In this document: positions 30,510 through 61,554 of the stretch, piece by piece
Position numbering within the stretch: position 1 is the first letter of the stretch
Layout: every line of letters starts with the position of its first letter
DNA from: Akkermansiaceae bacterium
Lineage (GTDB): Bacteria > Verrucomicrobiota > Verrucomicrobiia > Verrucomicrobiales > Akkermansiaceae
Length of the DNA: 64,000 bases
Assembly: GCA_031422775.1 (NCBI GenBank)
Contig: JANPMK010000089.1
Span: 14,945-78,944, forward strand
Direction of reading: 5' to 3'
Notes under the pieces: model-generated
What the model was told of the DNA's origin: nothing
Databases searched by the model: none
What the model saw: the letters and a program-made list of their open reading frames with translations, nothing else
Made by a program: the position numbers and the translations under genes

Positions 30510-30528
30510 TTAAAAATTGATTCCGATT

Positions 30529-32905: not shown

Positions 32906-32924
32906 AACAAATGATTCCATTGAG

Positions 32925-34194: not shown

Positions 34195-34998
34195 ATGAAT
34201 TTATCTAATAAAAAACCAGCAGCGATTGATACTAATATGCGTCACCGGATGCTGAGAGCATTTCGTGCTCCATTCAAACGCATGACACAGCTTATTGGTT
34301 TTGAGATTAAGAAAATTCGGAAATTTTCAGCCAAAGATGTCGCATTTCTACATATTGGGAAAAATGCTGGCACTCAAATCAGGTATCTTGAAAAGCTAAT
34401 CAATGACGCTCAGAGCCAAATCAGATTCGTTAATTATGGTCATGCCTTAAAATTAAATAATATACCAGAATCTGTTCCATATTTTTTTAGTATTAGAAAT
34501 CCTGTAACCCGATTCAAATCTGCGTTCTATTCGCGAAAACAAATAGAACGACGTTGGCATGACGTGGAAAAAATAGCGTTCGCGGATTTCGAGCATGCTA
34601 ATGATCTCGCTGAAGCCTTATTTTCAGGCGGAGACGCTGGAACACGCGCGTTTTGGGCAATGAACAACATCGGTCATGTCAACTCCGATCAGTTTGAATG
34701 GCTTGAAAATTGTGGCTACATATTCACACACAGAGAACCTATTTTTATTATTAGACAGGAAAACTTTGAAGCTGATTTCAAAGTTTTACTCCAAAGGTTG
34801 CATCTGCGTATAGATTGGAATCATTTGGACATCGCACCAAAACAGCAACGCTCAAATTCTTTTGATTATTTGGATACGCCAGAGCTATCTCCGTTAGCCG
34901 TGTCAAATTTAGAGCTTTGGTATAAGCGCGATTTTGAGTTTCACCGCACTTGTGTCGAATGGATTGAATCAAAAAAATCAAATGTAGATGATGTCTGA
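34195..34998 (+). CDS. sulfotransferase family 2-like protein
   Basis: FLHIGKNAGTQI (compare HIPKTGGT PAPS loop) and SIRNPVTRFKSAFY (compare RDPxxRxxS). Start moved to ATG 34195. Confidence 0.6.
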   Translation: MNLSNKKPAAIDTNMRHRMLRAFRAPFKRMTQLIGFEIKKIRKFSAKDVAFLHIGKNAGTQIRYLEKLINDAQSQIRFVNYGHALKLNNIPESVPYFFSIRNPVTRFKSAFYSRKQIERRWHDVEKIAFADFEHANDLAEALFSGGDAGTRAFWAMNNIGHVNSDQFEWLENCGYIFTHREPIFIIRQENFEADFKVLLQRLHLRIDWNHLDIAPKQQRSNSFDYLDTPELSPLAVSNLELWYKRDFEFHRTCVEWIESKKSNVDDV

Positions 34999-35012
34999 AA
35001 AATATAAATTAT

Positions 35013-36290: not shown

Positions 36291-36321
36291 GAAGCGGCGC
36301 TATTCATCTCACGAGATTGGC

Positions 36322-41455: not shown

Positions 41456-42682
41456 CTATTTAATGAAGCCCCAATGACCCGTGGTGAACGGCCAGAGCGA
41501 AAACAACGCGGGACCCACCAGGTTGAATTCTTTCACTGATCCCCAGTAACGAGAATCCAGTGAACTACTCGTGTTATCCCCCATCGCAGCATACTCACGC
41601 ATGCCTGGTTTGGCTTTCTCATCTTTGAGCGGTAACACTTCACCATCATCCACCAAATAACGTTTTTGACCGGGGCTCGATTGAGCAAGGACATAACCCT
41701 TGTGCTCTTTTTTAAACGGCGGCCCACCCTCAGCCACTCGGCGTATTCCCGGCTCACTCGCTACTTTTCCATTCACAATTAAATCTGGACTCATGATGGA
41801 AAGCTCATCACCCGGCACACCCACCAAGCGTTTGATGTAGTGCGATCCAGCACCCTGCGGCCCACTGTGCTCTTGGATGCCTTTGATTCCAATCGTATCA
41901 AAAACAAACACCTCTCCGCGCTTCGGCTTCCTGAAATGATACGAAAATTTATCCACCAGAACGAGGTCGCCTGTGTCGATATAACCCTCCATGAGAACCT
42001 GGCCTTTCTTCAAAATGTCACCATTTTTCCTAGCCTCCTTATACGCTGCGACTAGACCAATATCATGCGCCTGACTTGAAGGCGAAGGCAGTCTCAACGG
42101 CTCTTCGTCTATGCTAATCAATTGCGATCGACTGAAAAAATGCAGCCACTGAAAGTCCCTTACATCTCCCCCTTCTTCAATACTGCCATCTGAAGCCTGT
42201 CGCATGAAAACCTGCACTCGGCGGTCTTTATCATTCACCACTTTTTCGTAACTCCTACCCCGCAAGACACTTTCCATCACTCGTTCCGGAAACGATGGCC
42301 ATTTCTCTTTTTTCAAAGGAGTTCCGGTAATCCCGTTCAAAGTCGGCTGCATCGATCCCGTCGGAATCCGAAACGGCTGCAAATAATACGCACGCAATCC
42401 AAGTGCGATGACGATCGCCACAAACATGACTTCAACATTCTCCTCAAACCAACCCTGCGGCTTCTCACGCGGCAGCGCATTTTCACACGTCGCACGCAAC
42501 TGCTTTGACGCCTCATCCACCTTTTCCTTATCCTTGCTCTTAATCGCTTGAACCAGATCTTTACGTCGAGATTCGATCTCCGCAACCCGCTCAGCAGTTA
42601 GCAAATCTCTTTTGTAATTCAGAAATTTGGTCGCTCCTTTAGCGAGATGGTTCGCATTTTTTTTCCAAGCAGGCGTGAACAT
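41456..42682 (-). CDS. lepB: signal peptidase I, long form
   Basis: IPTGSMQPTL (catalytic Ser), IKRLVGVPGD (catalytic Lys), GDNTSSSLDSRYWG. ATG 42682 preferred over the TTG at 42736. Confidence 0.85.
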   Translation of the reverse strand: MFTPAWKKNANHLAKGATKFLNYKRDLLTAERVAEIESRRKDLVQAIKSKDKEKVDEASKQLRATCENALPREKPQGWFEENVEVMFVAIVIALGLRAYYLQPFRIPTGSMQPTLNGITGTPLKKEKWPSFPERVMESVLRGRSYEKVVNDKDRRVQVFMRQASDGSIEEGGDVRDFQWLHFFSRSQLISIDEEPLRLPSPSSQAHDIGLVAAYKEARKNGDILKKGQVLMEGYIDTGDLVLVDKFSYHFRKPKRGEVFVFDTIGIKGIQEHSGPQGAGSHYIKRLVGVPGDELSIMSPDLIVNGKVASEPGIRRVAEGGPPFKKEHKGYVLAQSSPGQKRYLVDDGEVLPLKDEKAKPGMREYAAMGDNTSSSLDSRYWGSVKEFNLVGPALFSLWPFTTGHWGFIK

Positions 42683-42841
42683 ACGAGGAAACCCTGCACC
42701 CCGAGAAGCTTCCCTGCAAGCCCTACGCCATGACAAAACCTAAAATCTTGCCTTCGAATACCCCTTGATTCACTTTGGCAGTATGAATTTGATATTCAGG
42801 ACCTTTTTCATTTTGATTACCTGCGGCATTCCCAGCCATCT

Positions 42842-43190: not shown

Positions 43191-44306
43191 TCAAACCCCA
43201 ACCCGCAGATCCCTAACACTCCACAACGTCCCTCCCGCTCCTTTCCCTGCCCCCCGCATCTTCCGCGCTCCATCTTTTCTCTTCTCAGAAAATCTCTCTC
43301 GCGCCGCGTCAAACGCATCATTCACAAAGCTCTTGCTACCGATCACGGCCCCGTCCGTGAAATACCTTACCCGCGTCCGCAAGATTTTCGTCATCCCTAG
43401 CTCAGGTAAGCGTGACTCATCGTGGGGGCGATCATTGGTCGCCCTCCTGCCTTCTTTGCTTTCCTCAATCGCCGTAGAACGTTGAATCTTCGCATTCGAT
43501 GGCTTCCGCTCCAACGCCATTCCCATTAACCTCCGATACTGCCGCGATGCCTGTTTCCACATCGTCGCATCAAATCCCACATCACGATCCGACATCATCG
43601 CCCTCACCAATCCCTCCCGCGCCTTCTTACCATTTCCTCTCGGCCCTCCGCCCACTGCCTCCCCATAGCTACTCCAACGGTATTCCGCAGGATCTTCCAC
43701 CATCTTCGCCCTAACAGGATTTAGATCGATGTAAGCCGCCATCACTCGTGCCGCCGTGCCGCTCTCTACGATTACGCTTTTAAATCTATCCTCCCACAAC
43801 CGCCCCGTCCGCTTATGCTGACCGTTAAACCATTGGGTAAAACGCTGCATCAACCCTTTCATGAACTGACTCAGATCGTGCATGCGATGCGTGAACCGAC
43901 CCTTGATTTCCTCCACCCGCTCCGGGTTCCCTCCCTCTAGGCCGCCCTCATGCCTTGCTTCGTGAATTTGTGCCGCCACATCCGCCACAAACGCATCGCT
44001 GTATAAAGCCGAGAGACGCTTGAGAAACACATCATCGGCAATGCCTTCCTCCGGCTTAGGCGGAACCTCAACCAGCAAATGGATGTGATTGCTCATGATG
44101 CAATACGACAAAACTCGGCACCCACTGAAATTCTCATACATCCGCATAAACATTCGGAACTTCTCCTTCTCCTCCACCCCAAACGCAAACCTCCGCTCCA
44201 CAACCCTTGAAATACAATGGTAAATCGATGGTTTCTCCAACGAATCCTTCCAAGGCGATATCCAACGTGCACGTCTCATTTGCTCCTTTTTAACTCCCAA
44301 ATCCAA
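43191..44306 (-). CDS. IS200-like / REP-associated (RayT-like) Y1 tyrosine transposase family protein with a long C-terminal extension
   Basis: HUH motif SNHIHLLVEV and catalytic-Tyr helix AAYIDLNPVRAKMV. 371 aa. No terminal inverted repeats of a classical IS are evident. Confidence 0.75.
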   Translation of the reverse strand: MDLGVKKEQMRRARWISPWKDSLEKPSIYHCISRVVERRFAFGVEEKEKFRMFMRMYENFSGCRVLSYCIMSNHIHLLVEVPPKPEEGIADDVFLKRLSALYSDAFVADVAAQIHEARHEGGLEGGNPERVEEIKGRFTHRMHDLSQFMKGLMQRFTQWFNGQHKRTGRLWEDRFKSVIVESGTAARVMAAYIDLNPVRAKMVEDPAEYRWSSYGEAVGGGPRGNGKKAREGLVRAMMSDRDVGFDATMWKQASRQYRRLMGMALERKPSNAKIQRSTAIEESKEGRRATNDRPHDESRLPELGMTKILRTRVRYFTDGAVIGSKSFVNDAFDAARERFSEKRKDGARKMRGAGKGAGGTLWSVRDLRVGV

Positions 44307-44653: not shown

Positions 44654-45070
44654 TCAGTTATGCCTAATCGTAGAATTCCAAGATTTAAAAACCAATTTCC
44701 CGTTTTTAAATGTATTAAAAAATCTGACTATTTTTATATTTTCCATTCCAATATTAACATTAATATAACTAACAAATAATATTTTCCGGCAAACTATTTC
44801 TACATTGTTAAATATAATATTATTAACAAAATCAATAATGTCATTATGAGATTCGCAGGATCGAAAATTCCAAGAAGCAAACTCAGGTATGCTTTCAATA
44901 CTTAAGTCAGCACCTGCTTCAGTTATTACCAAATGAATTTTAATTTTATCAACAGCAGGTTGCTTTGTCTCTAATATATAAAAATTATTTTCGATGTCTG
45001 ACGCCGTTATTTCAAAAAATCCATCAAGCGCCATAAGATCATCAACAATAGCAGCTGGATAATTATCCAT
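44654..45070 (-). CDS. putative immunity protein for the upstream RHS C-terminal toxin
   Basis: 139-147 aa ORF directly after (or overlapping by 17 nt) the giant RHS gene on the same strand. Extremely AT-rich relative to the window. No signal peptide or TM. No family recognised. Confidence 0.5.
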   Translation of the reverse strand: MDNYPAAIVDDLMALDGFFEITASDIENNFYILETKQPAVDKIKIHLVITEAGADLSIESIPEFASWNFRSCESHNDIIDFVNNIIFNNVEIVCRKILFVSYINVNIGMENIKIVRFFNTFKNGKLVFKSWNSTIRHN

Positions 45071-45080
45071 GATTCGAATT

Positions 45081-48000
45081 TTATTTATTGGAAGCATTGT
45101 AAAGCCATCTTTTCAATATAGCTGTATCATTAGCTACATTATTCGGTACAAATGTTTTTGGAACTTGGAAGTGAAAGCTAGCGATATTAGGTCTCAAGGC
45201 ATTTGTGCCAAGTCCAAAGCGAAATGCCATTCCATACTCTCCAGCTGCAGTTCCAGTACTCCACCCGGCTTTAATGACCGATCCTGCTTGATTATAAGTC
45301 CCCCCGGCTCCTCCAAATGCCGAATGGCCAAATCTGGAGGATGTGACACCAAATATTTCGCTTAAAAATGCTTTTTTTCCTAGATAACTTAGCCCTGCTC
45401 CAACTCCCTTGAATATACCCCCACCGACTGCAGACGTAATCATGTATTCTTGTGTAGCTAGCGACGCCCCTAAGGCTTCGGATTTAGCAAAATTTGCAAA
45501 ATAGTGCAATTGTGCTTCTGCTCTCGGTGTAAAGACCGTTCCAAGTTCAAAATCATTTACGTCACCAGAAAATCCTAATGCCGATACCCCGTGGCACTGA
45601 ATGCACGGAAGTGCGGTATCTTGAGTAATGTATCTAGGTGTTCTTCTGTCCCCCTCCGCGTTAACCAGATGTTGGAATGCAGCAGTCCAAGCGCCGTTGG
45701 CGAATTTTCCTCCACCCAGCACCGAGGCTGTGCCGCCAGCAACACTAGCAACGGCAGTCCGTCCTGCAAGGCCTAGGCTAGAACCTATCTTTGTATCTGG
45801 ATTGGTTAGCCCGGATACAGCGGTTGCAGCTCCTGCTGCCGCTGAGATAAACCCATCTCCAAACTTTTCGCCCATTGCTACGTTGGTGGCACCACCAATA
45901 ATTCCGTGACCCACAATGTTTGCTACACCACCAACCATGTGCAGAGGTCCGGTCAATGCTCCCGAGATCCCTTGAATTGTTGCTCCGCGCAACACATCAC
46001 CCAAGTCTCCCCCATTGAGACCGGCACTAAGCGCACCAGTAACAGCTCCAACCACAGCACCCGCGGCCGCAAACCCAGCTATCGCCCCGTATGCTACGGC
46101 TGAATAGAAACCGACACCGCTTGCTGCAAGAGAATACGCCACAGAATAGGCTACCGATCCCGCAATGCCAGCGGTCACGATCGTAGCGACTACAGCCACA
46201 ACTATCACCACAATCGTCCGCCAGTTCTCTTTGATGAAGCTTCCTATTTTACTGAACGCCTTGCTGATGAACGAGAAACCACTTGGATCTGTTGCGTTAA
46301 GCGGATTGTTTAGAACGTAACTGTAGCGGTTGAAGTTTTGACTGTATTCGGGGATTTGGACGACTGGGTCGGGTGAGAGGAAGCGGCCTAGTTCCGGATC
46401 GAAGATTCGGCCGTTCATGTGGATGAGGCCGGAGTCGTCTAACTGTTCGTGGCCGGTGTAGCCGCGGTCGTGGTCTTTTGAGCTGGTGCGGAAGGGATCA
46501 GCATCGCTGGCGCGGTAGCTTATTTGGGTGGCGGCGTCGCGACGTTCGCCCCATGCATCGAAGGATTGGTATTCGGTGGATTGGCTGGCGAAAGATGAGC
46601 CGTTCCAGATGCCGACGACTAACGCATCGGTGGAGCCGAGGTGATCTGCGATGACGTTGGTGAGTTTGGTTCCGGGATTTGAGCCGCCGAGGACGCGGGT
46701 GTAAATCATTCCACCGCCGAGTGAATGCCTGTGCACAGTTTTGACCAGAACAGGGCTGGCCGTTCCGTTGGTTTTTGTCGTGTGTTTTTCACGCTCGTAG
46801 GAGCCGAGGTAGAGGGTGGTTTCGATTGCACGGGAATCATTCCCCGATACACGTTCCTTGATCTGGCGAGCGCGGCTGCCACCGGCATCGAAATCAAACA
46901 GGCTGGTCACCGTGCTTGCGCTGGCGTGGACGATGTTTCCGGAAAAATCCTTCAATTCAGGAACGCCTTGGTATTCGAGGCTTTGGAGCTGGCCGAAGGA
47001 GGTCCAAGTGTAGGTGCGCTTGCCGTCTGAGGTGACGTAACCAGCGGCATCGTAAGAGTAGGTGCGGTTGAAACCTTTCACTGTTGCCGATGTGACCGCA
47101 TGGAGGCGAGTCGGGCTGGCGTATGTTAGAGTGGCGGAGTTGCCTTTGGTGAGCAGGTTGCCTTTGATGTCATAGGAATAACTTTGTGGAGGTGGGACGC
47201 TGGTGATGGTCGCTCCTGGTAGGGCGACGACTGAGGATGATGTGAGGCGGTTCAGGGTATCATAGCCGAAGGTTTCACTGCGTTGTGCGATGATATCGTT
47301 GCGGATTTTCAAATTTCCCAAACTATCCCAAGTGTAGGTTTTGTTTTGGATGGAATCGCCATTGCGAGTAGCGGAAAGCGCAAGCACATCGCCTTTGGCG
47401 GGATCATAGGAGGCGATGATGTTGACGTTTTGGGCGAGATGTTGGGTGAGAGCGCGGCCCTTGCTGTCATAGATTCCCGCCTGCCATAAAACCGTGCCCG
47501 CACCTTCGTAGGTTCCGGGAGCGAGTTTTTGCCTCAGAGGGAAAGAATAATCCTCATCATACTCATTCATGACGGTCAGACCTCCGGCATCGGTCGATGA
47601 AGTGACGCGCCCCAGCGCATCGTAAGTGCTGGATGTGGTAAACGTTTCACCGAACTGAGTTTTGGATGTGGTGAGGGGTCGGCCTAATGAATCGTAGGTA
47701 AACGATTCCTGATAACCACTCGCCGCGCCGGAGCCGGTGATTTCAATGACCTTGCCGCGCAAGACGCCAGAGGCTCCGCTGTAGAGTGTGCTGTATGTGC
47801 CTTCGGGTTGGGTGACTGTTAGAGGTCGGCCCAAGACATCATAGGTGAATGATGAGACTTGGCCTTTTGCGTTGGTGGAGGAAAGGACTTCGCCAAAAGC
47901 GTTGTAGACGGAGGATGAGGTGCCGGAGTTGGTTTCGGTTACCGAAATTTTATTTCCAAACGTGTCCCAGGTGTTGGTGAGCAAGGTATTGCCACCGACG

Positions 48001-51000
48001 GAGACAGAGGTGAGTCGGCCCTCGACATCATGGTTGAAAAGAGTGGTTTGGCCGGATGGATCTTTGGACTGAACAAGTCTGCCGTGCTGATCTTCCCAAC
48101 GTTCCAATGTCTGATTCGCAACGTTGATGGATTTGGAGTAGGTGGCGGGCTGATCCCCGAGCATACAGTAACCTTGTTCTTCAACGGAGTCGCTAATGTT
48201 ACCGGGTCGATTGGTGCGGATGACACGACTGAGTAGGTCATACTCAATGGTTGTGTAGTTTGGAGCTTCACCGGCAGCAAACGAATCCGAGACCGATGAT
48301 TTGCGGCCTTGGCTGTCGTAATGGGTGACGGTGTAAACTTTTCCGTAACGCGCGGAGCCTACGGCGGTGCCATCGATGAGGATGGTGGTTTCCGTGACGA
48401 GCTCACGGCCCAAGGCATCGAGATAGACTTTGCCTATGGGTGTGCCGGAGGATTGTTTCGCGCGGAAATAAGCGATGTTGTGGGTGGAGTTGTGCGGCCA
48501 GACCGAGTTCGGGACTGAGAAGTTGGCAGCATAGCCCGTGACCTCAGCGGTCTCGGTGGAATCGGGATGATTGGTTTTGATGAGGGTGCCGAATGGATCG
48601 TAAGCAAAGCTTGTTGTTAGGCCATTGATGCCTGTTGTGGAGAGAACGAGGGCTTTATCGGAATCGTAGTTATAGGTCGCAGTGTAGCCGAGTTGGTTCG
48701 TTTCCGAGATGACGAATCTACCTCTGGAATCATAGGTTGTAGATGACGAGCGTGTTAGTCCTGAGCCTGCAACTGTCGTGGAAACCACGTTGCCAAATGC
48801 GTCATGCGTGTAGGATTTGGTAACAGAGAGCGGATGTCCGGGTTCTACGGTTTCCGATTTCAGGATGCCGGTTCCGGTATCGTAGGTGAAGGCGGAGTTT
48901 TTCTGGCTGGCTGTGAGTCCCTGCTTGGTCTTGGTGACGCTTGCAGAAGACAATCGACCCAAGTGCCATTTCGTTGAAGTGATGTTGTGGCTGTAGACAC
49001 TATTGGTGGTCACGGATGACTCATCTAGGGAGGTAACGCTTGAGATTTTCACAAATCCATAAGCATCAAAATCCGCTAGATTTTGAGTGGTGACTGTTTC
49101 GCCTTTTAAGGTGCCATCGAGATCAAAAATATGATTCACAGATCTGGTCTGTACCGGACGGCGTATGGTGCCACCTACTCCGACCTGACTTGGCATTTCC
49201 GAGTAGATTGCGGACTGGATAGATAGAATTTTGCGACCCGCGGTGAAAGCTTGCCCCCCATGATTCGGGGGCATGAGTAAGCTGTCTGCGGCAGTCAGAT
49301 TGACGCTGGTTTGTGTGTAAACCGGACTCCCCGCGAAAGGGAACTCACGATGGCTGTCCGTGCGTGTGAGCTGGCCGTTGGTTTCATCCAAAGCCTCGAC
49401 CCAACCGAAGCCCAGGGAGGCTTCATTGGTTTTGTCATATCGAAGATCGCCGTAGCGTTGGGATTTCCAGTTGCGTCCGCCCAGACCGTTGGGTTCCGAG
49501 TAGCGTGAAACCACTAGACGAGAATCAATCAAGCTTGCATGGCCGACTGGAAGAGTTCCGGTGAATTTCTCGTAGACTCTTGCTCCAAAACCCGTGGTTG
49601 GGGTTGGATCGTTGAGGCGGTGATACTGAACTTGGAGTTCCGAGCCAAAGCCATCGGTGATGGCGGTGATGATTTCGGGTTTGGCTTGGTTGAGATAAAC
49701 GGTGGGGCGTTCTCCGTTACGGATATTCGCAACGATATCAGGAAAGCCATCTCCATTGATATCCACCACCATGGAGTTGGGATCTGGGTAATTTTTTTTG
49801 CCGAGCTTAAATCCATCCGGCAGTCCCCATGATTGATCCTGTATCCAACCCTTTCCGGTATTGATGAATGCGCCATTGTTGGTTCCTGAAAACGGATCGT
49901 TGCTGGTGACCGTGCGCTTGCCATCGGGTCCAATGTAATCAGTGCCATCGCGAGAATATAGAATATCGACTAAGCCGTCACCGTTCAGGTCTGCAAACTG
50001 TGAACAGGTTTGATCGTCGCCGGCATCCGAATCAAGAGAGAGCGGTAGTGTGTAACCTTGTCCGTAAGTAGAAGTATCTCTCAACCATCGATTTGCTCCC
50101 ACAGAAGTATCTCCACGGTTGAACCACGTGGAATGAGAGAGCTCAATTTTTGTATTCGTGCTAAAAAGTTTCGTGAACGCACGCACGATATCCACAAGGC
50201 CATCGCCATTCACATCGACCATTTGGGTCCCTGCCCCATTCCTAAGACTGTTAGAATCAGGATTTTGAACGAGAGGAGCATTGCCATCCACACTTGTGGG
50301 ATTGCTTCGATTCATATTTGAAGTCGAAGGATATGTGGCGGCGGGGAACTTCCAATCAGGGATGTCTTTATCTGGGAGAGATGATAACCAGGAAGGGTAT
50401 AATGCCGAAGAAGTAGGAGCTCTAAACTTTCCGGTGTAACGCGTATCAACATAGGCTGTGCTGGACGCTTCGACGGTGGATTTTACATAATCCAAGAAGC
50501 CATCTCCGTTTAAATCTACGAGTGCACGTCCGATGTCGTGAATTTTATGAATATCGTCGAGGTATAGTAGGTCTTCTGGTGGAGCCAATGCGTCATTTTT
50601 GACCCAGCCCTGTCCTAGATGGCAACGGTTATGGAAGACCGTACGTGAACTCTCTGGAAGAATTTTAGCTGATGCTGGGAGTGAAGTTAGCGGACTCGCA
50701 TTAGCCAGCCAACCCCAATTTGAGGTATTGATAAAAAGATCTAGGTAGCCGTCTTTATCGATATCGATCAAATCACGTGAAATCAGGTGACGCTTTCCAC
50801 CATACTCACTCACTGAGTTATTATTTCTGGATTCAAATGTGGGTGAATACCCAGCTAGTTCCACCCATCCAGTGCCATTGTGCGTGAGAAATTTGAACTT
50901 ATTAATGGATGTATAGCCGTTATATGCCCTTCTATGTTCTGTGACGAAAAGATCCATCTTGCCATCTCCATTGATATCGCAGGGCACGGAGCTGAGATCA

Positions 51001-53627
51001 TGTCTTGCTGACCAACCGCTATCTTGACCTGAATTTGTAAACGCATAGCGGCCGATAGGCTTGTATATTTCATCGGAGTAAAATCCGTCTCCTGAATTTA
51101 AATAAACACCTCCAACCACATCCGCATCCGTTTGGGTAATTAGTGCATCATTGACAATGTCCCAATCCGTAACCCTGTAGTCTGTTAGATCAAGAAGCCC
51201 ATCATTGTTGATGTCCATGAAACGCATGCCACGCGTTAAGTTGCTATTGTTACTAAACAAGGGAATTTCACTGATATCAGGAAAAGTGGCGGCTGAAACT
51301 TGGTTGTTATCGAGCTGTGTGGCAGTTCCAAAACGGATATTTTTAAATTCGCTCCAGCTAGTTCCATTGGTCGTGCTATTGTCATAATTAATGAATGCGA
51401 GGTAAGGGTAATTTCCTGCGACGAGACTAGCCGAGCCACTTACATTTTGCAGGGGAACTCTAAATGTCTTCCACTGGGAGTTTTCTCCTGGGCCATAAGT
51501 GATACTGCGATCACTGCTGATGGGTGATGCGACAGTCGTATCAGGACGAACATGAACGACAAACTCAGCACCCTGATTCCAAGCATCATTTGTATCGACG
51601 ATCAGGTAGGCTCCTTTATCAAGATTATCTGACCGAAATTGAAATTCCACAAATGAGTTGTTCGGAACCACCACAGCTGGCGTCTGAGCTACCAATCGTC
51701 CAACTGCTCCTTCAAGGCGGATCGAGTCGGATTGGGTTTCGGTAAATGAGGTAATATCACGGTCAATCGTGATGAATGAATCGCCGTAGCTTGGAAGCAC
51801 GATTTGCTCAGCTTTTACCCATTTGTTTGGTATGCTATTCGCACCCTGCCATGTAAAAACGGTCGGGCTGGTTGTAAATCCACCTGCATGTTGCCTGAAC
51901 ATAGATGCTAAAACCGACCTGCCCGTTTGCGCGCTAGTTTGGTAATTTAAAAAGTAGGTATGGTTGGTGTATGCACCTGTTTTGACTGCGATTTCCTTGA
52001 GGCGATTGTTCGTCTCATAGCGTAAACCGCTGGCATGATAGGCAAAGCTCTTATCCGGCCTGTCTTCGTAGGTAAAATTGATGCTGCAATACGGCGCTAA
52101 CCCGCTGTCGTTACCCGTGTAGTTTACAGAAGTTACGCGTCTATCTATCACGTTATTTGTCGTATGACTCGCTTGTCCTGACCAATTGACCAAATAGTAA
52201 TTGCCATTTGTGTCGGATACTTTTGAGACGTCCCACGAAATAGGTGCGTTGTAGAGCGGAGCAACAATTTTAGAACTGCTAGAATTTCCTAACTGTATAA
52301 TGAGTCCAGCCTTTGTCTCAACCTGCCACCATGAATTCGTATTGTTTTGGTTTCCACCTTTCAGAGTGATGCGTGCGAATGAATCGATTTCAGTGCGGTA
52401 TTCTGAATTCTGTTGGCCATAAGTTCCAGCTACACAGACCAACTTTTCTCCATTGAAAAAGAAGCGGTCATCGCCATCGAAACGTACAGCGCCTTCAAAA
52501 CCATCTTTCTGCAAACTCGCTGGCCCACGGGTGATGCTTTGGAAACCCGATAAGGACCAGCCCACACCAGCAATCCCATTTCCGGCACCGGATGAATAAT
52601 TCAGCGAAACTTTCGGTTCCATCCCTGCGGTGCCTTTTGGAATATCAATCGGCATCGAGTAGGTCATTGAGCCATCGCCACCAACAGACATCGAACCCTT
52701 TAACGAAGTAACAGGTTGATGCGTGCCGAGAATGGTCACAGGGGGAATGCTTCCTTGCTGCGGCAGTGGTGCACTACCATTTAATCCACCAAGCCAAAGT
52801 GAATCCATGTAATGATCGAGAAATGATTTTCCTGTACCGGGCTTGATATTATCCCTATCGTAGAGGTTTGGATTCGAACCGTTAGCAGTCTCCCATGCGT
52901 TTGGTAGACCGTCTTTATCCGTGTCGGGAAACATGGTATTTGCTGGATCGACCGTTAAATCATCTATCAGAGTGTCACCTAGCCGGCTGCCGTAGAGCTC
53001 GATGTTTTCTAAATTTGCCCCGCGCCCTTCGAATGCCAAGTTGGCCGCCGCCAATTTTCCACCGATGAATAAATCCCAGATATTACGCTGGTAGTCGTGG
53101 CGTAAAGTGATCCTTGTGTAACCCGAAGCTGTTAAACCATTTGCAGCGAGCGCAAACGTCCCAACTGTTTTCGCCCACTGGGCTGGATTTGTTTCACCCG
53201 AGCTACCATTCAAAACCCAAATATTTCCTGAGTTCGTGCCGACTGGAACCTGAAACGCGAGCTGTGTTCCATTCGAATGAAAACTCGCCTGACTGCCCTC
53301 AGGATCAGCTGCGGGTTTGAGTTGTAGATCGATGAATGCAATTTTCTCAGCGGCATTCCATTCGATATCTCTAACCAAAAGCGGTTCTTGTGCCGCGTTA
53401 GCTTCGATTTTTAAAGCCTGCCCACCGCCAACGCCTTGGCCATTCGCGGAGATGGCTGCATTTCCGGACAACAGCGACCATCCAGTGCCATTGGTAATTC
53501 CTAAAACTTCACCGGGATTATAGACGGGGCTCTCAAATGAGATTGGCGGTAAATATGCCAGAAGTTGATTCGTCCAGATAGCTGAGCAACAAATCGTGGT
53601 AACACTCGCCTTTAAAAAGTAGTTCAT
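45081..53627 (-). CDS. giant secreted TcB/TcC-like RHS-repeat polymorphic toxin (SpvB-like domain + FG-GAP/VCBS-type repeats + RHS shell + core + variable C-terminal region)
   Basis: 2848 aa with an N-terminal hydrophobic signal. [12 protein letters not shown] Ca-binding-like motif. SpvB/TcB signature [39 protein letters not shown]. DxNGDG loops ([53 protein letters not shown]). More than 15 YD repeats (YDSRGRF, YDVLGRP, YDSLGRP, YDALGRV...). RHS core ...[30 protein letters not shown]...[17 protein letters not shown]. Confidence 0.9.
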   Translation of the reverse strand: [2848 protein letters not shown]

Positions 53628-55714: not shown

Positions 55715-55791
55715 TCCATCTCCACGATCTCCCCTCCCAAAAACTCTCCATTTTCCTTGATAAACTCATGAATTCATGCATGATTTCATGC

Positions 55792-56052
55792 ATGGCAACT
55801 AAAACGATTTCCCTGGAACTCGATGCTTATGAAAAGCTCCGTCGATCCAAACTAGACGGAGAATCCTTTTCCGCAGTCGTTCGCCGAGCGCGATTTGACC
55901 CCGCCGATGCACGCGGCAGTTCCATCATCAGCGCCTTGTCCGCTCTTAGCGTGCGGGAATCCGACGAAAAAGCAGTCACTTACTGGGAAAAAGCCGGCCT
56001 TCCAGAACGAACAATTAGCCCCTCCGTATGGGAAGGAGATAAAGAACAGTGA
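55792..56052 (+). CDS. vapB: VapB-like antitoxin (DUF217-type)
   Basis: 86 aa from ATG 55792 (MATKTISLELDAYEKLRRSK...). The stop overlaps the GTG start of the PIN gene. Confidence 0.6.
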   Translation: MATKTISLELDAYEKLRRSKLDGESFSAVVRRARFDPADARGSSIISALSALSVRESDEKAVTYWEKAGLPERTISPSVWEGDKEQ

Positions 56053-56435
56053 AGCTCCTAGATACCTGCTTTCTCATTCATTTACATCGTGAATGGACTA
56101 AGAAGCAACCTGGCCCTGCCACTCATTATCTTGAACAGCATCAAAAAGAAGAATTTAGCATCTCCGTGATCACGTCGCTTGAGTTTCTCGAAGGCTTCGA
56201 ACAGATCAACGATGGACAACGCTTTCTCGCACCATTCTCCTCTCTTCTCGTATCCGAAGAAATCGCCCGTATTGGCAGTCGCATCAGACGCGATCTCCGC
56301 AAGCGCGGAGAGATGATTGGAGACTTCGACATCCTAATCGCCGCTACAGCCATCGAAGCCGCGATTCCAATTATCACGGACAACGTCAACCACTTCAACC
56401 GCATCGAAGGGCTTACCGTAGAAACATACCGTTAG
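56049..56435 (+). CDS. vapC: PIN-domain ribonuclease toxin VapC
   Basis: LLDTCFLIH (first acidic residue), E in LEFLEG, DILIAATAI, TDNVNHF. 128 aa. Confidence 0.8.
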   Translation: MKLLDTCFLIHLHREWTKKQPGPATHYLEQHQKEEFSISVITSLEFLEGFEQINDGQRFLAPFSSLLVSEEIARIGSRIRRDLRKRGEMIGDFDILIAATAIEAAIPIITDNVNHFNRIEGLTVETYR

Positions 56436-56474: not shown

Positions 56475-57908
56475 TCACTTTTCCTTATCTTCAATCCTGT
56501 CAGCAGCACGGCGCACGCGGCTGACATATTGTTCGAGGGTTTCGCTCTTCTTCAGATTGAGAGCCGCTTGAAGGTTAATCAGAGCATCGCTGTAACGGCG
56601 CTCACGCACTAACATTTGACCAAGTGCGAGGTTTGAAGCGTAAGCAACTTTCTCGACCCTTGCCGCGAGCTGGTAACTTGTCCGAGCCTCCACAACTAAG
56701 GCCTCGCGTTTGCTTTCATCGGTTTCATCACGCGAGAGAAGATCTTTGTGACGAGCAAGCTCTAACAATACCTCGCCATCCGCAGGATTGAGTTCGACAA
56801 GTTTGTTGAGTAAAGTGCTGGTGCGTTCTTTCTGCCCTAAAGATTGAGATATTCTCACCTCAACAAGCAGGATAGAGGTAAGATCTGCAGGTAAAATTTT
56901 GTCGCCAAGTTTCGTCCGGATACTGGTGATGAACTCATCCGCCTGGTCGGGAAATCCATAGTCATTCAGAATGCGTGCTGACTTAACTGTGCGCGCAACA
57001 TCCAGTGTCTTGGACTTTTCGATGGCAGCTTGATAAGCCAACAGTGCGAGCTGAGGCTCATTCTGATCCATGTATAGGTTGCCGAGTAGATTGAGGTTTG
57101 CTTCATCCGCGATACCCTTAAGCCTCAGCACTTCAAGGTTTACGATGGCATCGTCCTTTCTCTCCATGGCGAGGTATGCATTGGTTTGCTGCAACCATAA
57201 TTGTTTATCGTTCGGGTTAGCATCGATAAGCGTTCCGATCAAATTGGAGCCTTCTGTATATTTTTCCTGCGTCATTAGAGCTTGTGAGAGCCCGAGTTTC
57301 CAATCACGCGATGAGGAATCAAGCAAGTAAGCTTGGCGATATGCGTTCTCAGCGGCGACAGCGTCTTTCTTTAAAAGATGACAATAACCTAACAGACCGT
57401 ATATCCGTGCGGAATTCTCACCCAACTCGATGGCCTTCTGTAAAATCGGCAGAGCTTCGTCGGTTTTATTCTGTGAGACATAGAGATAAGCAAGGTTCGT
57501 GTGTGCACGGCGAAAACGTGGAAACTTACTGATGGCCTCCAAGAAAGAACGGCGGGCATCATCATTCCGACCTGCTTGGAAATACAAATTTCCCATCACA
57601 AAAATCATAGCGGGACTGATTTCTGTAGCCACTTTCTTGCGATCTGTCGGGTGTTCAGTTTCTTGAATGAAAGCTGCTAACTGTGCCTCAGCCTCTTTAA
57701 ACTTAGATTTCTCAAACAGGTCACGGACAGCAGTAAGCGCAATCTGTTCTTCAGCAGAAACTTTAGGCTCTACGTCTGAAAGGAAACCGTAGGAACCAAC
57801 AAAATCGCGCACAAATTTTGGATCACGAAATAGGTTTGAAGGTGGAATGATCTGCTGTGCAGATAAAGCCGTGACTAGCAGCATGGAGATAGTGATGGAG
57901 CGGAACAT
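56475..57908 (-). CDS. periplasmic TPR-repeat protein (TtpD-like position in a TonB2-type cluster)
   Basis: Signal peptide, then repeated TPR-like helices (A..YLA/YQA...P.D). Last gene of the exbB-exbD-tonB string. Confidence 0.65.
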   Translation of the reverse strand: MFRSITISMLLVTALSAQQIIPPSNLFRDPKFVRDFVGSYGFLSDVEPKVSAEEQIALTAVRDLFEKSKFKEAEAQLAAFIQETEHPTDRKKVATEISPAMIFVMGNLYFQAGRNDDARRSFLEAISKFPRFRRAHTNLAYLYVSQNKTDEALPILQKAIELGENSARIYGLLGYCHLLKKDAVAAENAYRQAYLLDSSSRDWKLGLSQALMTQEKYTEGSNLIGTLIDANPNDKQLWLQQTNAYLAMERKDDAIVNLEVLRLKGIADEANLNLLGNLYMDQNEPQLALLAYQAAIEKSKTLDVARTVKSARILNDYGFPDQADEFITSIRTKLGDKILPADLTSILLVEVRISQSLGQKERTSTLLNKLVELNPADGEVLLELARHKDLLSRDETDESKREALVVEARTSYQLAARVEKVAYASNLALGQMLVRERRYSDALINLQAALNLKKSETLEQYVSRVRRAADRIEDKEK

Positions 57909-57929
57909 GGTATAGTGGTTTCTTTGCTA

Positions 57930-58631
57930 TCAGTTTTTCTTAACTTCAAAAGTGAATGGAACAATGCAGGTGGCTTTAATTTTTTTACCCTCTTTCATAG
58001 CGGGCTTAAAAATCCACTTACTGACCGCGTTGATCGCGGACTTATCGAGATCCGAATGACCGGAAGATTGTTTGATGGCGGTGTTCGTGACGCGTCCATC
58101 TGCGTCCACCGTGCAAGAAACGAGTACCTTGCCGCCCACACCATTTTTGAGAAGCGAAGCGGGATAGATCGGCTGGCTCTTGCTCGCCGGAAATGGAGGG
58201 GAGTCCATTTCCCCTCCAAGCAGGTCTTCCCCATCACCTCCGCCGCCTCCTCGCCGTCCGAACCCAGAAATGTCAATCGCGAAGCCAGAGCCACTTGATA
58301 AAGCCAGATCTCCGACATCAATCCCAAGATCCACGTCCGATGATTCCTGAGCATCCGACGCCATCTCGATCGGCTCGATCGACTTCTCAACCTCTTCGAG
58401 TTCATCCAACTCTTCGGGCTCCTCCAATTTCTCCTCATCTGGCGGCGGTGGCGGAGGCGGTGGGGGGATGGTTATATCCACAATCTGATATTCCTCAGCC
58501 TCCTCCTCGCCCTCCTGATTTCCGCCGTTGAATATGAAATTCGCCACCCCGCCAATCAAGACGATGGCCAGCATCACGCCGATAACCCAACGGTGGCGTG
58601 ATTTGGTTGGCGGTTTGGAAAACGGTGGCAT
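57930..58631 (-). CDS. tonB: TonB-family energy transducer
   Basis: N-terminal TM, P8 and acidic linker (PPPPPPPPDEEKLEEPEE). C-terminal TonB_C-like YPASLLKNGVGGKVLVSCTVDADGRVTNTAI...AINAVSKWIFKPA. Confidence 0.8.
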   Translation of the reverse strand: MPPFSKPPTKSRHRWVIGVMLAIVLIGGVANFIFNGGNQEGEEEAEEYQIVDITIPPPPPPPPPDEEKLEEPEELDELEEVEKSIEPIEMASDAQESSDVDLGIDVGDLALSSGSGFAIDISGFGRRGGGGGDGEDLLGGEMDSPPFPASKSQPIYPASLLKNGVGGKVLVSCTVDADGRVTNTAIKQSSGHSDLDKSAINAVSKWIFKPAMKEGKKIKATCIVPFTFEVKKN

Positions 58632-58712
58632 TGGATCTTTCGAAGTTGGCTAGGAATAGCGGGCCTGAAGTCAAAAATCACTCGGCTCAACTTATTCCGG
58701 CAGACTTGTCAT

Positions 58713-59108
58713 TTATTTTTTGACTTGGGTAGCAAGGCCGATCTTATCGATACCCAGACGCCCAAGCACCGACATCACATCCATGACTTTCTGATATTGC
58801 GCCGAGCTATCTCCCCGCACGACGACCGGCAAATCCGGCGTGGCTGCCTTGAGTGCGCTAAGCTTGGTTTCGAGCTCTTCCAATGACACTGGTGTTAGGT
58901 TCAGCGAAATCCGCCCTTCTGGATCCACCGTAATCGCCTGAATCTTGGGAGCCCCAATATCCGCTGAAGACTTCCCACTCGCGCTAGGCAGTTCAACTTT
59001 CACTCCCTTTACGCCTGCTGCGGTCATCACAATGAAGATGAGGAGTAGAACCAGATAGAGGTCCACCATCGGTGTGACGTTGATATCGTCGTAGTTTTCT
59101 GAGGCCAT
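58713..59108 (-). CDS. exbD: ExbD/TolR-family biopolymer transport protein
   Basis: DINVTPMVDLYLVLLLIFIVM N-terminal signature. 131 aa. Confidence 0.85.
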   Translation of the reverse strand: MASENYDDINVTPMVDLYLVLLLIFIVMTAAGVKGVKVELPSASGKSSADIGAPKIQAITVDPEGRISLNLTPVSLEELETKLSALKAATPDLPVVVRGDSSAQYQKVMDVMSVLGRLGIDKIGLATQVKK

Positions 59109-59162
59109 GGCTTTAAAGGTTGGGTTGGTGGATTGGCGAGAATCTGGGTGGGCGGGGTGCGA

Positions 59163-60695
59163 TCAATCTTTGCTAGGATAGAACTCGGCCATCTTGGCGA
59201 CGAACTCATCGATGAAAACTTGGATCTCGGCAGTCGTGTTTTTGATCCGACCGTTCAGGTAGGAATAGATGAACAAGGCGGGAATCGCCACGATGAGGCC
59301 TGCAACGGTGGCAAGCAGCGCCGATGCAATACCAGGGGCGATGGCGTTGACGTTTACTTCGCCTTCCTTGGAAATGATGGCGAAGGTGATCATCACGCCG
59401 ACCACCGTTCCAAGGAGACCGACGTATGGTCCGCCCGCGATACTGATCGTGAGGTAAACCAAGCCGTCAGTCATCTTGTGCTGGATCTGCACAAGGCCAG
59501 CATCGAGCGAGGCGCGAATGGCCAGAATGGAACGTCCCGTGAGGCCAGTCGTCTGATTCGGCCCCGGAGATAGGCGATGGCTGATTTCCTCTGAGCCAAT
59601 GTGATAGATTTCATAAAACGGTGACTTCTGGATGACCTTCTGAGCCGCGGGATCCGCGTTGCCACCGAAGCTGCTGACACTGTCGCCGCAAGCGTGGTCG
59701 ATAGCGGTGAGATCAGAGGAAAGTCTGCTCCACTGGCGAAGGAACTCGGCACTGCCTTTGTGAATGGAGTTGAGATAAAAGAGTTTTTTGACCGCGACAG
59801 ACCATCCGACCAGAATCATGAGAACGCAAATCGCAATGGCTACCCAACCGTCGAACATCATATTCTTAGCGATGTCTCCGAACAGCATGACGTGTTCCAT
59901 GGCCTTATTCTGCCCGCCAGGATGTTTGATCTCGGCATCGATTGCCTTGCCCATGGTTCCGTCAAAAGGAAGCTCACCCTTTCCTGTCTCGATGGCCTTG
60001 GCGATAGTGCCCTCGGACTTGTTGATCGAGACAACAGCGGGAAGACCCGAGCCCGTGTCAGCAGGTGGGGAAATGCCCTCGGTTTTCTTGTCCGTGGACG
60101 CAAAAAATACGGAAGGACCAGCGATAAAAAGTGTACCATCAATCGCGCGTCCCGCGAAACCGAGAGCTTTGCCCTCGAAACGATGTCCTCCGGCTACCGT
60201 TCCGAGACGCTTGATCCCAAGCTCCAGAACCTTCAACCGCTCAGTCATCTCACCTTTAGGATCGCCCACAGATGTGAACGCCTTTTGGTCGATGTTCGCG
60301 ACCTGATCGCGATAAAGCTGGAACTCAGCGGGATGAATGCGGGTCACGAGCGCCTTCGAATACTGGTTAAGCAGACCCGATGTGTAGGTGAATCCGCCCT
60401 TGCGAGTTTCGAGATCACGCTCGAGAACCTTAATCTTGGTGGTGCGTAGTTCCTCCTCACGTTCGAGGGCGCGAAGCTCTCTGGCGAGCAAGAGAGCTTC
60501 GTCATCACGACGATTCACTTCTTTATAGAGTGCGCGACGGAGGTCCGCGTATTCCTTTTGAGTGCTCTGGAGCTCGCTGACAGCTTTATCAAGTAGAGCG
60601 CGGGCGCTCTCGTTCGGATTCGGTGCGGTTTTCGCCTCGGCGGAAATGGAAGTAGCCACGATAAACATGGCGACGGCTAAGTTGATAGGTTTCAT
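59163..60695 (-). CDS. long MotA/TolQ/ExbB proton-channel family protein (TtpC-like: periplasmic coiled-coil N-domain plus ExbB channel)
   Basis: Signal or TM, then about 280 aa of periplasmic coiled coil, then GGPYVGLLGTVVGVMITF and APGIASALLATVAGLIVAIPALFIYSYL (ExbB motifs). ATG 60695 overlaps the stop of the upstream gene (ATGA). Confidence 0.8.
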   Translation of the reverse strand: MKPINLAVAMFIVATSISAEAKTAPNPNESARALLDKAVSELQSTQKEYADLRRALYKEVNRRDDEALLLARELRALEREEELRTTKIKVLERDLETRKGGFTYTSGLLNQYSKALVTRIHPAEFQLYRDQVANIDQKAFTSVGDPKGEMTERLKVLELGIKRLGTVAGGHRFEGKALGFAGRAIDGTLFIAGPSVFFASTDKKTEGISPPADTGSGLPAVVSINKSEGTIAKAIETGKGELPFDGTMGKAIDAEIKHPGGQNKAMEHVMLFGDIAKNMMFDGWVAIAICVLMILVGWSVAVKKLFYLNSIHKGSAEFLRQWSRLSSDLTAIDHACGDSVSSFGGNADPAAQKVIQKSPFYEIYHIGSEEISHRLSPGPNQTTGLTGRSILAIRASLDAGLVQIQHKMTDGLVYLTISIAGGPYVGLLGTVVGVMITFAIISKEGEVNVNAIAPGIASALLATVAGLIVAIPALFIYSYLNGRIKNTTAEIQVFIDEFVAKMAEFYPSKD

Positions 60696-61471
60696 GGCTG
60701 TATGATGGGAAGTTGGGTAAAGGAAACTTCTGTCTCGCTGGTAGCGGTGACTAGGAGTTTTAGGATTTGAGGGGCAAGTTCGTTGCGCTCTTGAAATTTC
60801 CAACCGTCTGCGCCCGCTCGGCCGGCCAAGGCAAAACTCCCGTCTTCATTCACTGCGTATGCGAACGCCAGACCAAAATAGACAACCTGCAAGTTAAACT
60901 CCTCACCCTTGGAATTCTTGTGGAGCTCAGGAAACACATGGACTCCTTGCTGGAATTTCTCCACATCCGCCATGAGTTCAGTAACTGTCACTAGCCTCTT
61001 GGAAACGTCATCGGTTTGGCCGTCTGCAGGCAATAAGAGATTCTTCTGGATCGCTTCTATCGCCTGCGTGACTTTAGGATTACTCTTAAGAGACGCTGGT
61101 AAGAGTGGGAATTTGGCTGCCAAGTTTTCCTCCATCACCCTGAGTTGGCGTTTGAGTTCGTCTTCAGCCGCGGTGAGACGATCCTTTTCGGATACCTTAT
61201 CGAGGGACTGTTGGTCAGCACCTTCCTTACGCGTCTTTGCAGAGGCAATTTGCTCCTTGAGAGAAGCAATCTCGCTATCAAGACCTTCCTTGTAATTCGT
61301 TAGAACTTCCTGATCGCGAGACCAATCGTTTTCTTCCTGTTGGATTTTCCGCATGGTCTCGACCCACTCCCGCACCGATGTACGAAGCTCTTCGTTAGGT
61401 GTAACTGCTGCTTCTTGAGCGAAGACTGTGAGAGATAAAGCCAGACTGAATATGGTAATGTAGGCGCGCAT
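60692..61471 (-). CDS. periplasmic coiled-coil protein, DUF3450-like (TtpB-like position)
   Basis: 259 aa with a signal peptide and a long coiled coil. Translationally coupled to the TtpC-like gene, an arrangement I recall for TonB2-type clusters. Confidence 0.5.
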   Translation of the reverse strand: MRAYITIFSLALSLTVFAQEAAVTPNEELRTSVREWVETMRKIQQEENDWSRDQEVLTNYKEGLDSEIASLKEQIASAKTRKEGADQQSLDKVSEKDRLTAAEDELKRQLRVMEENLAAKFPLLPASLKSNPKVTQAIEAIQKNLLLPADGQTDDVSKRLVTVTELMADVEKFQQGVHVFPELHKNSKGEEFNLQVVYFGLAFAYAVNEDGSFALAGRAGADGWKFQERNELAPQILKLLVTATSETEVSFTQLPIIQP

Positions 61472-61554
61472 ATGTTGTGACGCGGCGAATTAAAGAAGGG
61501 CTGTCGGCAATTGCCGACAGCCCCCTTGTGACAATTTCGTCAGATAAGTTTAAC

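Follow-up and report, generated by a model that had tools for sequence, protein, structure and literature searches.

A signal-, SpvB- and RHS-containing protein from Akkermansiaceae: a highly probable antibacterial polymorphic toxin with an adjacent immunity gene and a candidate built-in entry module

A 64,000-nucleotide stretch of DNA from an Akkermansiaceae bacterium (GenBank assembly GCA_031422775.1, contig JANPMK010000089.1), hereafter referred to as the window, contains on its reverse strand a gene coding for a protein of 2848 amino acids (aa) (45081..53627 (-), reading frame confirmed), which is identified here, with high confidence, as an antibacterial polymorphic toxin of the RHS type accompanied by an immunity gene. 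In the reading favoured overall, which is regarded as probable though well short of certain, this toxin with a signal peptide, SpvB domain, propeller and RHS shell, together with its adjacent immunity gene, is combined with a proposed delivery mechanism. RHS/YD shells are known as cargo containers that rely on an external injector, either TcA or a type VI secretion system (T6SS). For the present protein a partner-free delivery is plausible; that delivery is autonomous and uses a conserved hydrophobic "pretoxin" module as the entry device is put forward more tentatively, and the specific proposal that this DUF637-like module is a built-in membrane-entry device, shielded by a Sec-exported cocoon of the TcB/TcC type, is held as a rather doubtful possibility.

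The homology of the protein to about 70 relatives (34-83% identity by BLAST) runs from residue 1 and stops at aa 2654-2665, near aa 2658 in the great majority of cases, and not at the DPSGF motif (aa 2451); beyond the breakpoint, the relatives carry unrelated tails of 150-210 aa. The initial annotation had correctly let the RHS core end at DPSGF but had also placed the variable boundary there, whereas conservation continues for another 205 aa, and it thus missed the pretoxin module. This module (aa 2452-2656, 45660..46274 (-)), which was delimited from the homology breakpoint, a family alignment (A1) and an AlphaFold2 (AF2) model, is a 205-aa Gly/Ala-rich segment (38% G+A) lying between DPSGF and the variable toxin. 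According to the alignment, it starts with an amphipathic helix, often very basic, followed by a transmembrane (TM)-like helix, IVVIVVAVVATIVTAGIAG, then contains two GG-x4-GGKF-x-[DN]G motifs and ends with a near-invariant GGGKFANGAxTAAFQHLxN, which in the window protein reads GGGKFANGAWTAAFQHLVN. The sole segments of the whole protein with a Kyte-Doolittle value of at least 1.6 over 19 residues occur in the pretoxin, just past the cleavage site, and the TM-like helix (aa 2467-2497) reaches 2.76. The AF2 model of the module is all-helical, with eight helices and a predicted local distance difference test score (pLDDT) of 70-93.

Neither the AF2 model of the pretoxin, submitted to Foldseek, nor its profile resembled any structure of the PDB, and the window copy matched no Pfam family, DUF637 (PF04830) included. 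Among 28 aligned family members, however, 12 matched DUF637, which represents the helical region ahead of the toxin in CdiA/FhaB (best E-value 5.8e-8), one of them (P0089) with 27.3 bits against a gathering score of 26.6, and several matched glycine-zipper families. The pretoxin represents the best, and the only concrete, candidate for the missing built-in entry device. An internal duplication is also apparent in the module (45660-46274), consisting of H-G-x-[VI]-G-G-x4-M-G-G-K-F-x-D-G-F and, further downstream, V-G-G-T-A-S-x-L-G-G-G-K-F-A-N-G-A, which suggests an origin from a repeated glycine-zipper-like unit.

The variable toxin domain proper (aa 2657-2848, 192 aa, 45084..45659 (-)) lies past the homology breakpoint and is shared only with a metagenomic fragment (P0121), at 59% identity. 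The gene overlapping or abutting its stop codon (44654..45097 (-), also read as 44654-45070) codes for a protein of 138-147 aa devoid of a signal peptide, which is a candidate for the cognate immunity protein. The ORF (open reading frame) at 44654-45070 shares 33% identity (E-value 3e-23) with the ORF located directly downstream of the P0121 toxin (locus L004), so that a second toxin/immunity pair occurs on an otherwise unrelated contig; both immunity ORFs lack a signal, and the window ORF has no match in Pfam, NCBIfam or PDB sequence searches. The GC content decreases stepwise from 0.545 in the pretoxin to 0.443 in the toxin and 0.283 in the immunity ORF, for a window value of 0.50. Taken together, the breakpoint, the paired downstream ORF and the GC steps are the hallmark of a conserved delivery body to which a toxin/immunity cassette has been attached. 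Both the immunity gene and the polymorphic antibacterial nature of the toxin had been overlooked in the initial annotation. A search by tblastn revealed no orphan cassettes or paralogues elsewhere in the window.

A gene of the IS200-like Y1 (HUH) transposase family occurs just downstream of the toxin/immunity pair (43191-44306 (-)). Genes of the same type are similarly placed at two otherwise unrelated homologous loci, L001 (19825-21021; 35% identity to the window gene, E-value 1e-61) and L004 (1640-2584; E-value 7e-11). This shared position could be due to chance, possibly because such paralogues are abundant in Verrucomicrobia, or could mark a mobile or recombination-prone edge of the cassette.

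Depending on the relative, the tails carried by the same body belong to distinct enzyme families, e.g., CHAP, VanY/Peptidase_M15, M23, Lipase_3/Mbeg1-like, Tox-REase-7 and bacterial RNase A. The ORFs occupying the immunity position after a CHAP tail and a VanY tail possess lipoprotein-type or signal-type leaders, and in one homologue the position is occupied by a small multi-TM protein. The variety of the tails and the matching leaders of the immunity proteins indicate that cargo is delivered to other diderm bacteria, where its site of action is the periplasm, the membrane or the cytoplasm. With respect to function, this pattern of cargo and immunity favours interbacterial antagonism over an insecticidal role, and argues for an antibacterial polymorphic toxin rather than for an insecticidal Tc subunit.

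Homologues of near-full length (about 70, of approximately 2750-2950 aa) occur in the Verrucomicrobiota, where the close family comprises members from Akkermansiaceae, Luteolibacter and Haloferula. The distribution of the pretoxin is much larger. A profile built from alignment A1 and compared with 1.84 billion cluster representatives retrieved 9633 proteins at an E-value of 1e-3 or below and 5756 at 1e-10 or below, and a scan of species-representative genomes with the GGKFANGA peptide confirmed at least 477 loci. Among the loci listed, the Verrucomicrobiota are accompanied by Gammaproteobacteria (Alteromonas, Pseudoalteromonas, Shewanella, Hahella, Ferrimonas, Cellvibrio and Xanthomonadaceae/Lysobacterales), Betaproteobacteria, Alphaproteobacteria, Campylobacterota and Bacteroidota. 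Nearly all of the ORFs that are complete upstream display, according to hidden Markov models (HMMs) of the modules, the signal, the SpvB domain, (the propeller), the RHS shell and the pretoxin in this order; four (L022, L060, L082 and L083) have no SpvB match, two or three of which look truncated or frameshifted. Other scaffolds for the pretoxin, namely PAAR-Rhs proteins and CdiA, were considered and rejected: the long representatives and the complete ORFs are nearly all of the RHS plus SpvB type, and a check for PAAR, VgrG and two-partner secretion (TPS) domains covered six pretoxin-bearing proteins. The format extending from signal to pretoxin, as read from the module matches, is widespread and not lineage-specific, contrary to the earlier proposal of a format particular to this lineage.

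Arrays of orphan pretoxin-toxin cassettes occur at many loci (L029, L030, L070, L073 and L075). Up to four such cassettes, either downstream of or detached from the full-length gene, occur at L075, L070, L030 and L073, in Gammaproteobacteria and others. In the databases, numerous proteins with a length of about 400 aa have as their first residue the conserved Met of an HMNGR motif, 43 residues ahead of DPxG, which fits with orphan fragments retaining a recombination handle.

The body that carries the pretoxin and the toxin consists of the series of modules that had been recognized at first sight, most of which were borne out by the ORF call, the profile searches and the structural models. The N-terminal segment (aa 1-24, MNYFLKASVTTICCSAIWTNQLLA, 53556..53627 (-)), followed by YLPPISFE, has a basic n-region that leads into a hydrophobic core, and the residues at positions -1 and -3 are small. 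Its n/h/c pattern is kept in almost all of the approximately 70 full-length homologues, with a K/R-containing n-region and a junction of the type NQLLA/[DYQ]LPP or AQA/EL, and a classical signal directly precedes the SpvB domain in the proteobacterial relatives. From this conservation and the standard rules, used as a heuristic, the N-terminus is predicted to be a Sec-type signal peptide, in agreement with what had been supposed.

An AF2 model of aa 1-820 built from 44 family sequences (mean pLDDT 80.7) shows a helix at aa 3-22, then a low-confidence disordered linker, a beta-sandwich at aa 50-227 (pLDDT around 80-88), the SpvB region at aa 312-580 and a second beta-sandwich at aa 628-767 (pLDDT around 90). 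Outside of the SpvB region, Foldseek retrieved lectin and jelly-roll folds of the ConA type with E-values of 1e-6 to 1e-4, including the botulinum Hc-N domain, the lectin domain of the Vibrio cholerae sialidase, calreticulin and the lectin domain of Aap, which makes "lectin-like" a reasonable label for the sandwich. The N-terminal module (aa 28-232, 52932..53546 (-)), assigned as a ConA/LamG-like sandwich from its strands and these matches, and the inserted one (aa 615-790, 51258..51785 (-)), assigned from the AF2 model, thus agree with the two beta-rich modules originally noticed, of about 200 aa and at aa 600-790, respectively. Neither of them matched any family in Pfam or NCBIfam searches. 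The N-terminal sandwich is a candidate target-binding module; its HMM matched only members of the Akkermansiaceae type (L008, L011, L012, L019 and L021). Both sandwiches are limited to this subfamily, the proteobacterial members being devoid of the insert according to the module HMMs.

Next to the N-terminal sandwich, a TSP3-like motif (DTDKDGLPNAWE, aa 235-254, 52866..52925 (-)) includes the DTDKDG stretch that had been compared to Ca-binding sites; the residues D235, D237, D239, G240 and E246 are indeed invariant across the family, but the match to TSP3_bac remains sub-threshold (21 bits for a cut-off of 25, E-value 2.5e-4). The SpvB/TcB N-terminal shell domain (aa 305-600, 51828..52715 (-)) is identified by both Pfam (4e-16, aa 317-484) and Foldseek, which retrieved YenB (PDB code 4igl, 9e-16), TcdB2-TccC3 (PDB code 4o9x) and the N-terminal domain of SpvB (PDB code 6p0x, TMt 0.62).

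The FG-GAP/integrin-like beta-propeller (aa 800-1310, 49698..51230 (-)) was recognized by the FG-GAP_3 (8e-15) and FG-GAP (9e-11) profiles of Pfam and contains seven Ca-loops of the D-x-[DN]-x-D-G-x-x-D type, where "five or more" had been counted, starting at aa 805, 884, 955, 1038, 1138, 1213 and 1289 and spanning aa 805-1297. It is followed by a TcdB_toxin_midN region and the RHS/YD-repeat shell (aa 1311-2357, 46557..49697 (-)). The midN match (1.9e-9, aa 1281-1415) encompasses the ITAITDGFGSELQVQY block at aa 1320, formerly described as TcB-mid-like, and TcdB_toxin_midC had no match at an E-value of 0.1 or below in a profile search of the toxin protein. The YD repeats are readily identified as RHS_repeat (9e-31), although a strict regular expression finds 11 motifs and the previously announced number of more than 15 is reached only when degenerate repeats are counted. 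Among the PDB sequence matches of the YD region, the T6SS Rhs proteins 7q97 and Tse5 are the best. The shell ends in the Rhs-associated core/aspartyl autoprotease (aa 2358-2451, 46275..46556 (-); TIGR03696, 1.5e-18 over aa 2358-2450), with DPSGF at aa 2447-2451. The two-Asp motif is intact, since D2420 (in SPDP) and D2447 (in DPSGF) are both invariant in the family; we take them to correspond to the catalytic positions D651 and D674 of TccC3. By analogy, cleavage is predicted to occur after F2451.

The scans of the window against Pfam comprised the ORFs of at least 150 aa, minus nested or overlapping ones (14 of which were not scanned), plus five shorter ones. No TcA, PAAR, VgrG, Hcp, TPS/ShlB or type II secretion system (T2SS) component was found in these ORFs, in line with the absence of any visible partner reported earlier, nor did any delivery gene occur within 2.5-10 kb of the toxin gene at six homologous loci. 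In the toxin protein and the scanned ORFs, there was no PAAR or prePAAR domain, VgrG linkage or Eag chaperone, and no TPS domain, FHA repeats or CdiB. What the scans did find were housekeeping genes and genes for lipopolysaccharide and glycosyltransferase functions, ABC transporters, TonB/ExbB, chaperones and a signal peptidase. At the six homologous loci the neighbours are wholly different, except that the small downstream ORF always keeps its place; this indicates that the window's divergent ABC transporter, its TonB/ExbB cluster and its S26 peptidase are not linked to the toxin.

From these data a mechanism is proposed, in which the precursor would be exported by the Sec machinery and its signal removed, as suggested by the conserved signal. 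The SpvB domain, the propeller and the RHS repeats would fold, as expected from their homology, so as to enclose the last 397 aa in a closed shell of the TcB/TcC type, and the aspartyl protease (D2420/D2447) would then cut after DPSGF. The freed cargo would comprise two parts, the pretoxin (aa 2452-2656) and the swappable toxin (aa 2657-2848); the two-part organization itself is apparent from the sharp breakpoint, the GC step and the diversity of the tails in relatives. The shell might shield the membrane-active module until a competitor is bound through the beta-sandwiches and/or the propeller, upon which the hydrophobic module would insert in the target envelope and carry the toxin at least to the periplasm. 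In sibling cells, the signal-less 138-aa protein encoded downstream, which co-varies with the toxin as a pair, would neutralize it. Such a model would require no TcA, T6SS or TPS partner, the possible exits across the outer membrane being a T2SS, vesicles or lysis.

Several precedents exist for the individual steps. An Rhs cage holds a hydrophobic pore-former in Tse5, as cited in PMC11630599, and a glycine zipper is needed for the translocation of the Tde1 toxin (PMC10240207). The bacterial teneurin-like protein BiTLP is a YD-shell toxin with a Sec signal, the TM-containing C-terminal domain of which is toxic only from the periplasmic side (PMC13018210), and the Rhs bacteriocin Bcn-A is active in the supernatant (PMC7259588).

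A number of points weigh against this mechanism. Export, cleavage, encapsulation, release and killing are all predictions, and the closed shell (aa 300-2451) is deduced from homology to known shells. The window pretoxin appears related to DUF637 only distantly and transitively, through alignment A1. The toxin domain had no sequence match in Pfam, NCBIfam or the PDB, and the AF2 model of the tail (pLDDT mostly below 50) gave at best an E-value of 2.2 with Foldseek against the PDB. In a Sec substrate, a helix as hydrophobic as the TM-like one would normally be halted in SecYEG and become a stop-transfer anchor, and such a behaviour in the inner membrane of the producer conflicts with a simple periplasmic encapsulation. 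A diderm cell would have to let out a folded particle of about 300 kDa, and the opening of the shell in the absence of TcA represents a further difficulty. Finally, the lack of a TcA or T6SS partner applies to the scanned ORFs of the 64 kb and to the surroundings of the gene at six homologous loci, and that of T2SS components to the scanned ORFs of the window, the searches not extending to the rest of the source genome.

This last restriction, together with a set of modules (SpvB, propeller, TcdB_midN, RHS and core) equivalent to TcB plus TcC, leaves some room for a conventional Tc BC subunit docking on a TcA pentamer encoded elsewhere and directed against eukaryotic targets such as grazers or hosts; the propeller of TcB is the element that docks on TcA. 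This explanation is nevertheless considered very improbable, taking into account the immunity genes and the peptidoglycan-hydrolase tails, which indicate bacterial targets, a hydrophobic cargo different from the known Tc hypervariable regions, the lack of TcA at all loci covered and the family-wide Sec signal, as Tc subunits have no signals and are released by lysis through a type 10 secretion system (PMC10847048). The signal is likewise hard to reconcile with both T6SS loading and a cytoplasmic assembly onto TcA. An Rhs effector delivered by a T6SS, with its PAAR/VgrG adaptor encoded elsewhere, would agree with the T6SS Rhs proteins found as best PDB sequence matches of the YD region and with the orphan cassettes and immunity genes that are typical of rhs loci. 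However, a conserved cleavable Sec signal is incompatible with loading from the cytoplasm, the N-terminal half resembles TcB and not the plug of T6SS Rhs proteins, and neither the protein nor the scanned window ORFs contained PAAR, prePAAR or VgrG, so that this origin of the delivery appears extremely improbable.

Two other explanations retain the Sec signal. The protein may be retained in the envelope as a contact-dependent toxin resembling WapA or CdiA, i.e., Sec-exported, attached to the producer, for example by the hydrophobic pretoxin helices or by another outer-membrane route, and handing over its C-terminal region on contact. In this respect, the DUF637-like module is otherwise typical of CdiA, the C-terminal half of which waits in the periplasm (PMC11630599), the TM-like helix would serve as an anchor, the bacterial teneurin-like YD-shell toxins have been proposed to be surface-displayed (PMC13018210), and the lectin-like and propeller modules suit adhesion. 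An inner-membrane anchor, however, cannot display a protein at the surface of a diderm cell, and no lipobox, outer-membrane anchor or TPS/autotransporter domain was found, nor any partner transporter at the loci examined; this arrangement is thus regarded as rather unlikely. It is also conceivable, albeit unlikely, that the hydrophobic module is the main weapon, as a membrane-depolarising glycine-zipper toxin to which the tail adds an accessory or specificity domain. The glycine-zipper matches in several members, the TM-like helices and the precedents of Tse5, EsxX, the CdiA ionophores and the C-terminal domain of BiTLP agree with this function, but the module is conserved whereas the immunity genes differ from one tail to another; a toxin that is conserved should be matched by an equally conserved immunity protein, which was not seen. 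In addition, many relatives have genuine enzymes as their tails.

With respect to known systems, the gene belongs to a known, computationally defined class and is not an invention of this lineage. The "TcdB/TcaC" trafficking class of polymorphic toxins, delineated in silico by Zhang, de Souza, Anantharaman, Iyer and Aravind (2012, Biol Direct 7:18, PMC3482391), is defined by a signal peptide, SpvB, an integrin-like propeller, RHS, a variable toxin, a downstream immunity gene and orphan cassettes, and all of these defining features are found in the window gene or its family, the signal by the heuristic. The format itself had been defined there already. The differences concern the DUF637-like module, located here between the Rhs cleavage site and the toxin, whereas Zhang et al. 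list DUF637 only under the type V secretion system and do not list Verrucomicrobia (PMC3482391), as well as the lectin-like N-domain and the inserted beta-sandwich added in the present subfamily. Other reports mention Rhs proteins of the SpvB/TcdB type from Apibacter (PMC8125069) and from a Xanthomonas strain (bioRxiv 2025.05.08.652813), and a literature search found no experimental work on the signal-SpvB-RHS class. The consistent coupling of the DUF637-like hydrophobic module to the signal-SpvB-RHS scaffold appears not to have been described previously, and the same seems to hold for the verrucomicrobial addition of two lectin-like sandwiches.

The Tc BC cocoons (TcdB2-TccC3, PDB code 4o9x, and YenB-YenC, PDB code 4igl) resemble the present protein by the N-terminal fold of SpvB, the propeller, midN and the RHS shell, and also by an autoprotease that has two Asp and a DPxG[LF] site. 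They differ from the window protein, which is a single fused chain with a Sec signal, an antibacterial cargo encoded ahead of its immunity gene, two extra beta-sandwiches and, past the cleavage site, a conserved hydrophobic module, and for which neither midC nor a nearby TcA gene was detected. The signal peptide, the immunity gene, the antibacterial tails and the lack of TcA at the loci covered all set it apart from the canonical BC subunits of Tc toxins. Among the teneurin-like proteins, BiTLP (Raoelijaona et al. 2026, Nat Commun 17:2753, PDB codes 9pt5 and 9ifo, PMC13018210) is similarly a Sec-signal polymorphic toxin with a YD shell and immunity genes; its C-terminal domain is hydrophobic and contains TM segments, and no machine for its delivery has been identified. 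However, where the window protein has SpvB and an FG-GAP propeller, teneurin-like proteins rely on TTR, a TIP domain, an FN-plug and an NHL propeller, and the profile match to 9pt5 covers only profile positions 2034-2128 in the YD shell; with only the YD region matching and no TTR, FN-plug or NHL, the window protein is not a teneurin-like protein.

The T6SS Rhs effectors (RhsA, Tse5 and Rhs1, PDB code 7q97) likewise have an RHS cage, immunity genes and orphan cassettes for the C-terminus, and their C-terminal autoproteolysis and encapsulated toxin, which is hydrophobic in Tse5, correspond to what is predicted for the window protein. They contain PAAR/prePAAR, however, are dependent on VgrG and lack a Sec signal; the lack of any PAAR or VgrG in the protein and the scanned ORFs places the window protein outside this group. 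The pre-toxin region of CdiA (DUF637/PT-VENN) is also a helical Gly/Ala-rich module located just before a variable toxin and ending in a sharp motif, GGKFANGAxTAAFQHLxN playing here the same boundary role as VENN in CdiA, although the scaffold of the window protein is an RHS shell and not an FHA beta-helix, and no TPS domain or CdiB was found. Bcn-A from Xanthomonas and WapA from Bacillus subtilis are other antibacterial toxins of the Rhs family that work without a T6SS; unlike the window protein, Bcn-A (1398 aa) lacks an SpvB half and depends on accessory ORFs, and WapA is anchored to the Gram-positive cell wall.

Other genes of the window deserve mention in their own right. The signal peptidase I (S26) gene (41456-42736 (-), 426 aa), the second one downstream of the toxin/immunity pair past the Y1 transposase-like gene, codes for a protein whose catalytic domain is restricted to residues 252-415, after a long N-terminal extension; it is not conserved beside the homologues. 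Two overlapping genes (55768-56435 (+)), one for a 94-aa VapB-like antitoxin and the other for a 128-aa PIN-domain toxin, make up a type II toxin-antitoxin pair. They are located between the ABC transporter and a cluster (56475-63918 (-)) that encodes a TPR protein, TonB, an ExbB extended at its N-terminus by about 420 aa and a DUF3450 protein, after which comes a 787-aa protein carrying bacterial surface Ig-like and He_PIG domains; this cluster is unlinked to the toxin at other loci. A low-GC island (approximately 25500-36300, 0.42-0.45 versus 0.50-0.54) contains GT10 and GT11 fucosyltransferase-like, GT25 and FkbM methyltransferase genes and several ORFs without a family match, and adjoins genes for GDP-mannose dehydratase and UDP-glucose dehydrogenase. 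It has the appearance of a cluster for surface glycans, of the O-antigen type, gained by horizontal transfer. A 630-aa ORF at its edge (23490-25382 (+)) has no Pfam match at an E-value of 1e-5 or below. Finally, a PATR-repeat (autotransporter-associated) protein of about 1350-1430 aa is encoded 3-4 kb downstream of the toxin at two homologous loci (L006:22799-27088 and L007:21336-25343); it is absent from the window, L001 and L002, and its presence is probably coincidental.

For the window gene itself, the outcome is mostly a corrected annotation, that of an antibacterial toxin with an immunity gene instead of an insecticidal Tc component. At the level of the family, the boundary motif GGKFANGAxTAAFxxLxN can be used as a tool for mining new toxin/immunity pairs. 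The question of how YD-shell toxins with a Sec signal gain access to their targets was raised again in 2026 for the teneurin-like proteins (PMC13018210), and the pretoxin coupled to the scaffold offers a concrete candidate for the missing entry step of the Sec-exported RHS cocoons. If the proposed mechanism is true, one conserved entry module would serve cargoes destined for the periplasm, the membrane and the cytoplasm, and thousands of proteins from aquatic Gram-negative bacteria would be self-sufficient antibacterial "capsule" toxins acting without TcA, T6SS or a two-partner transporter.

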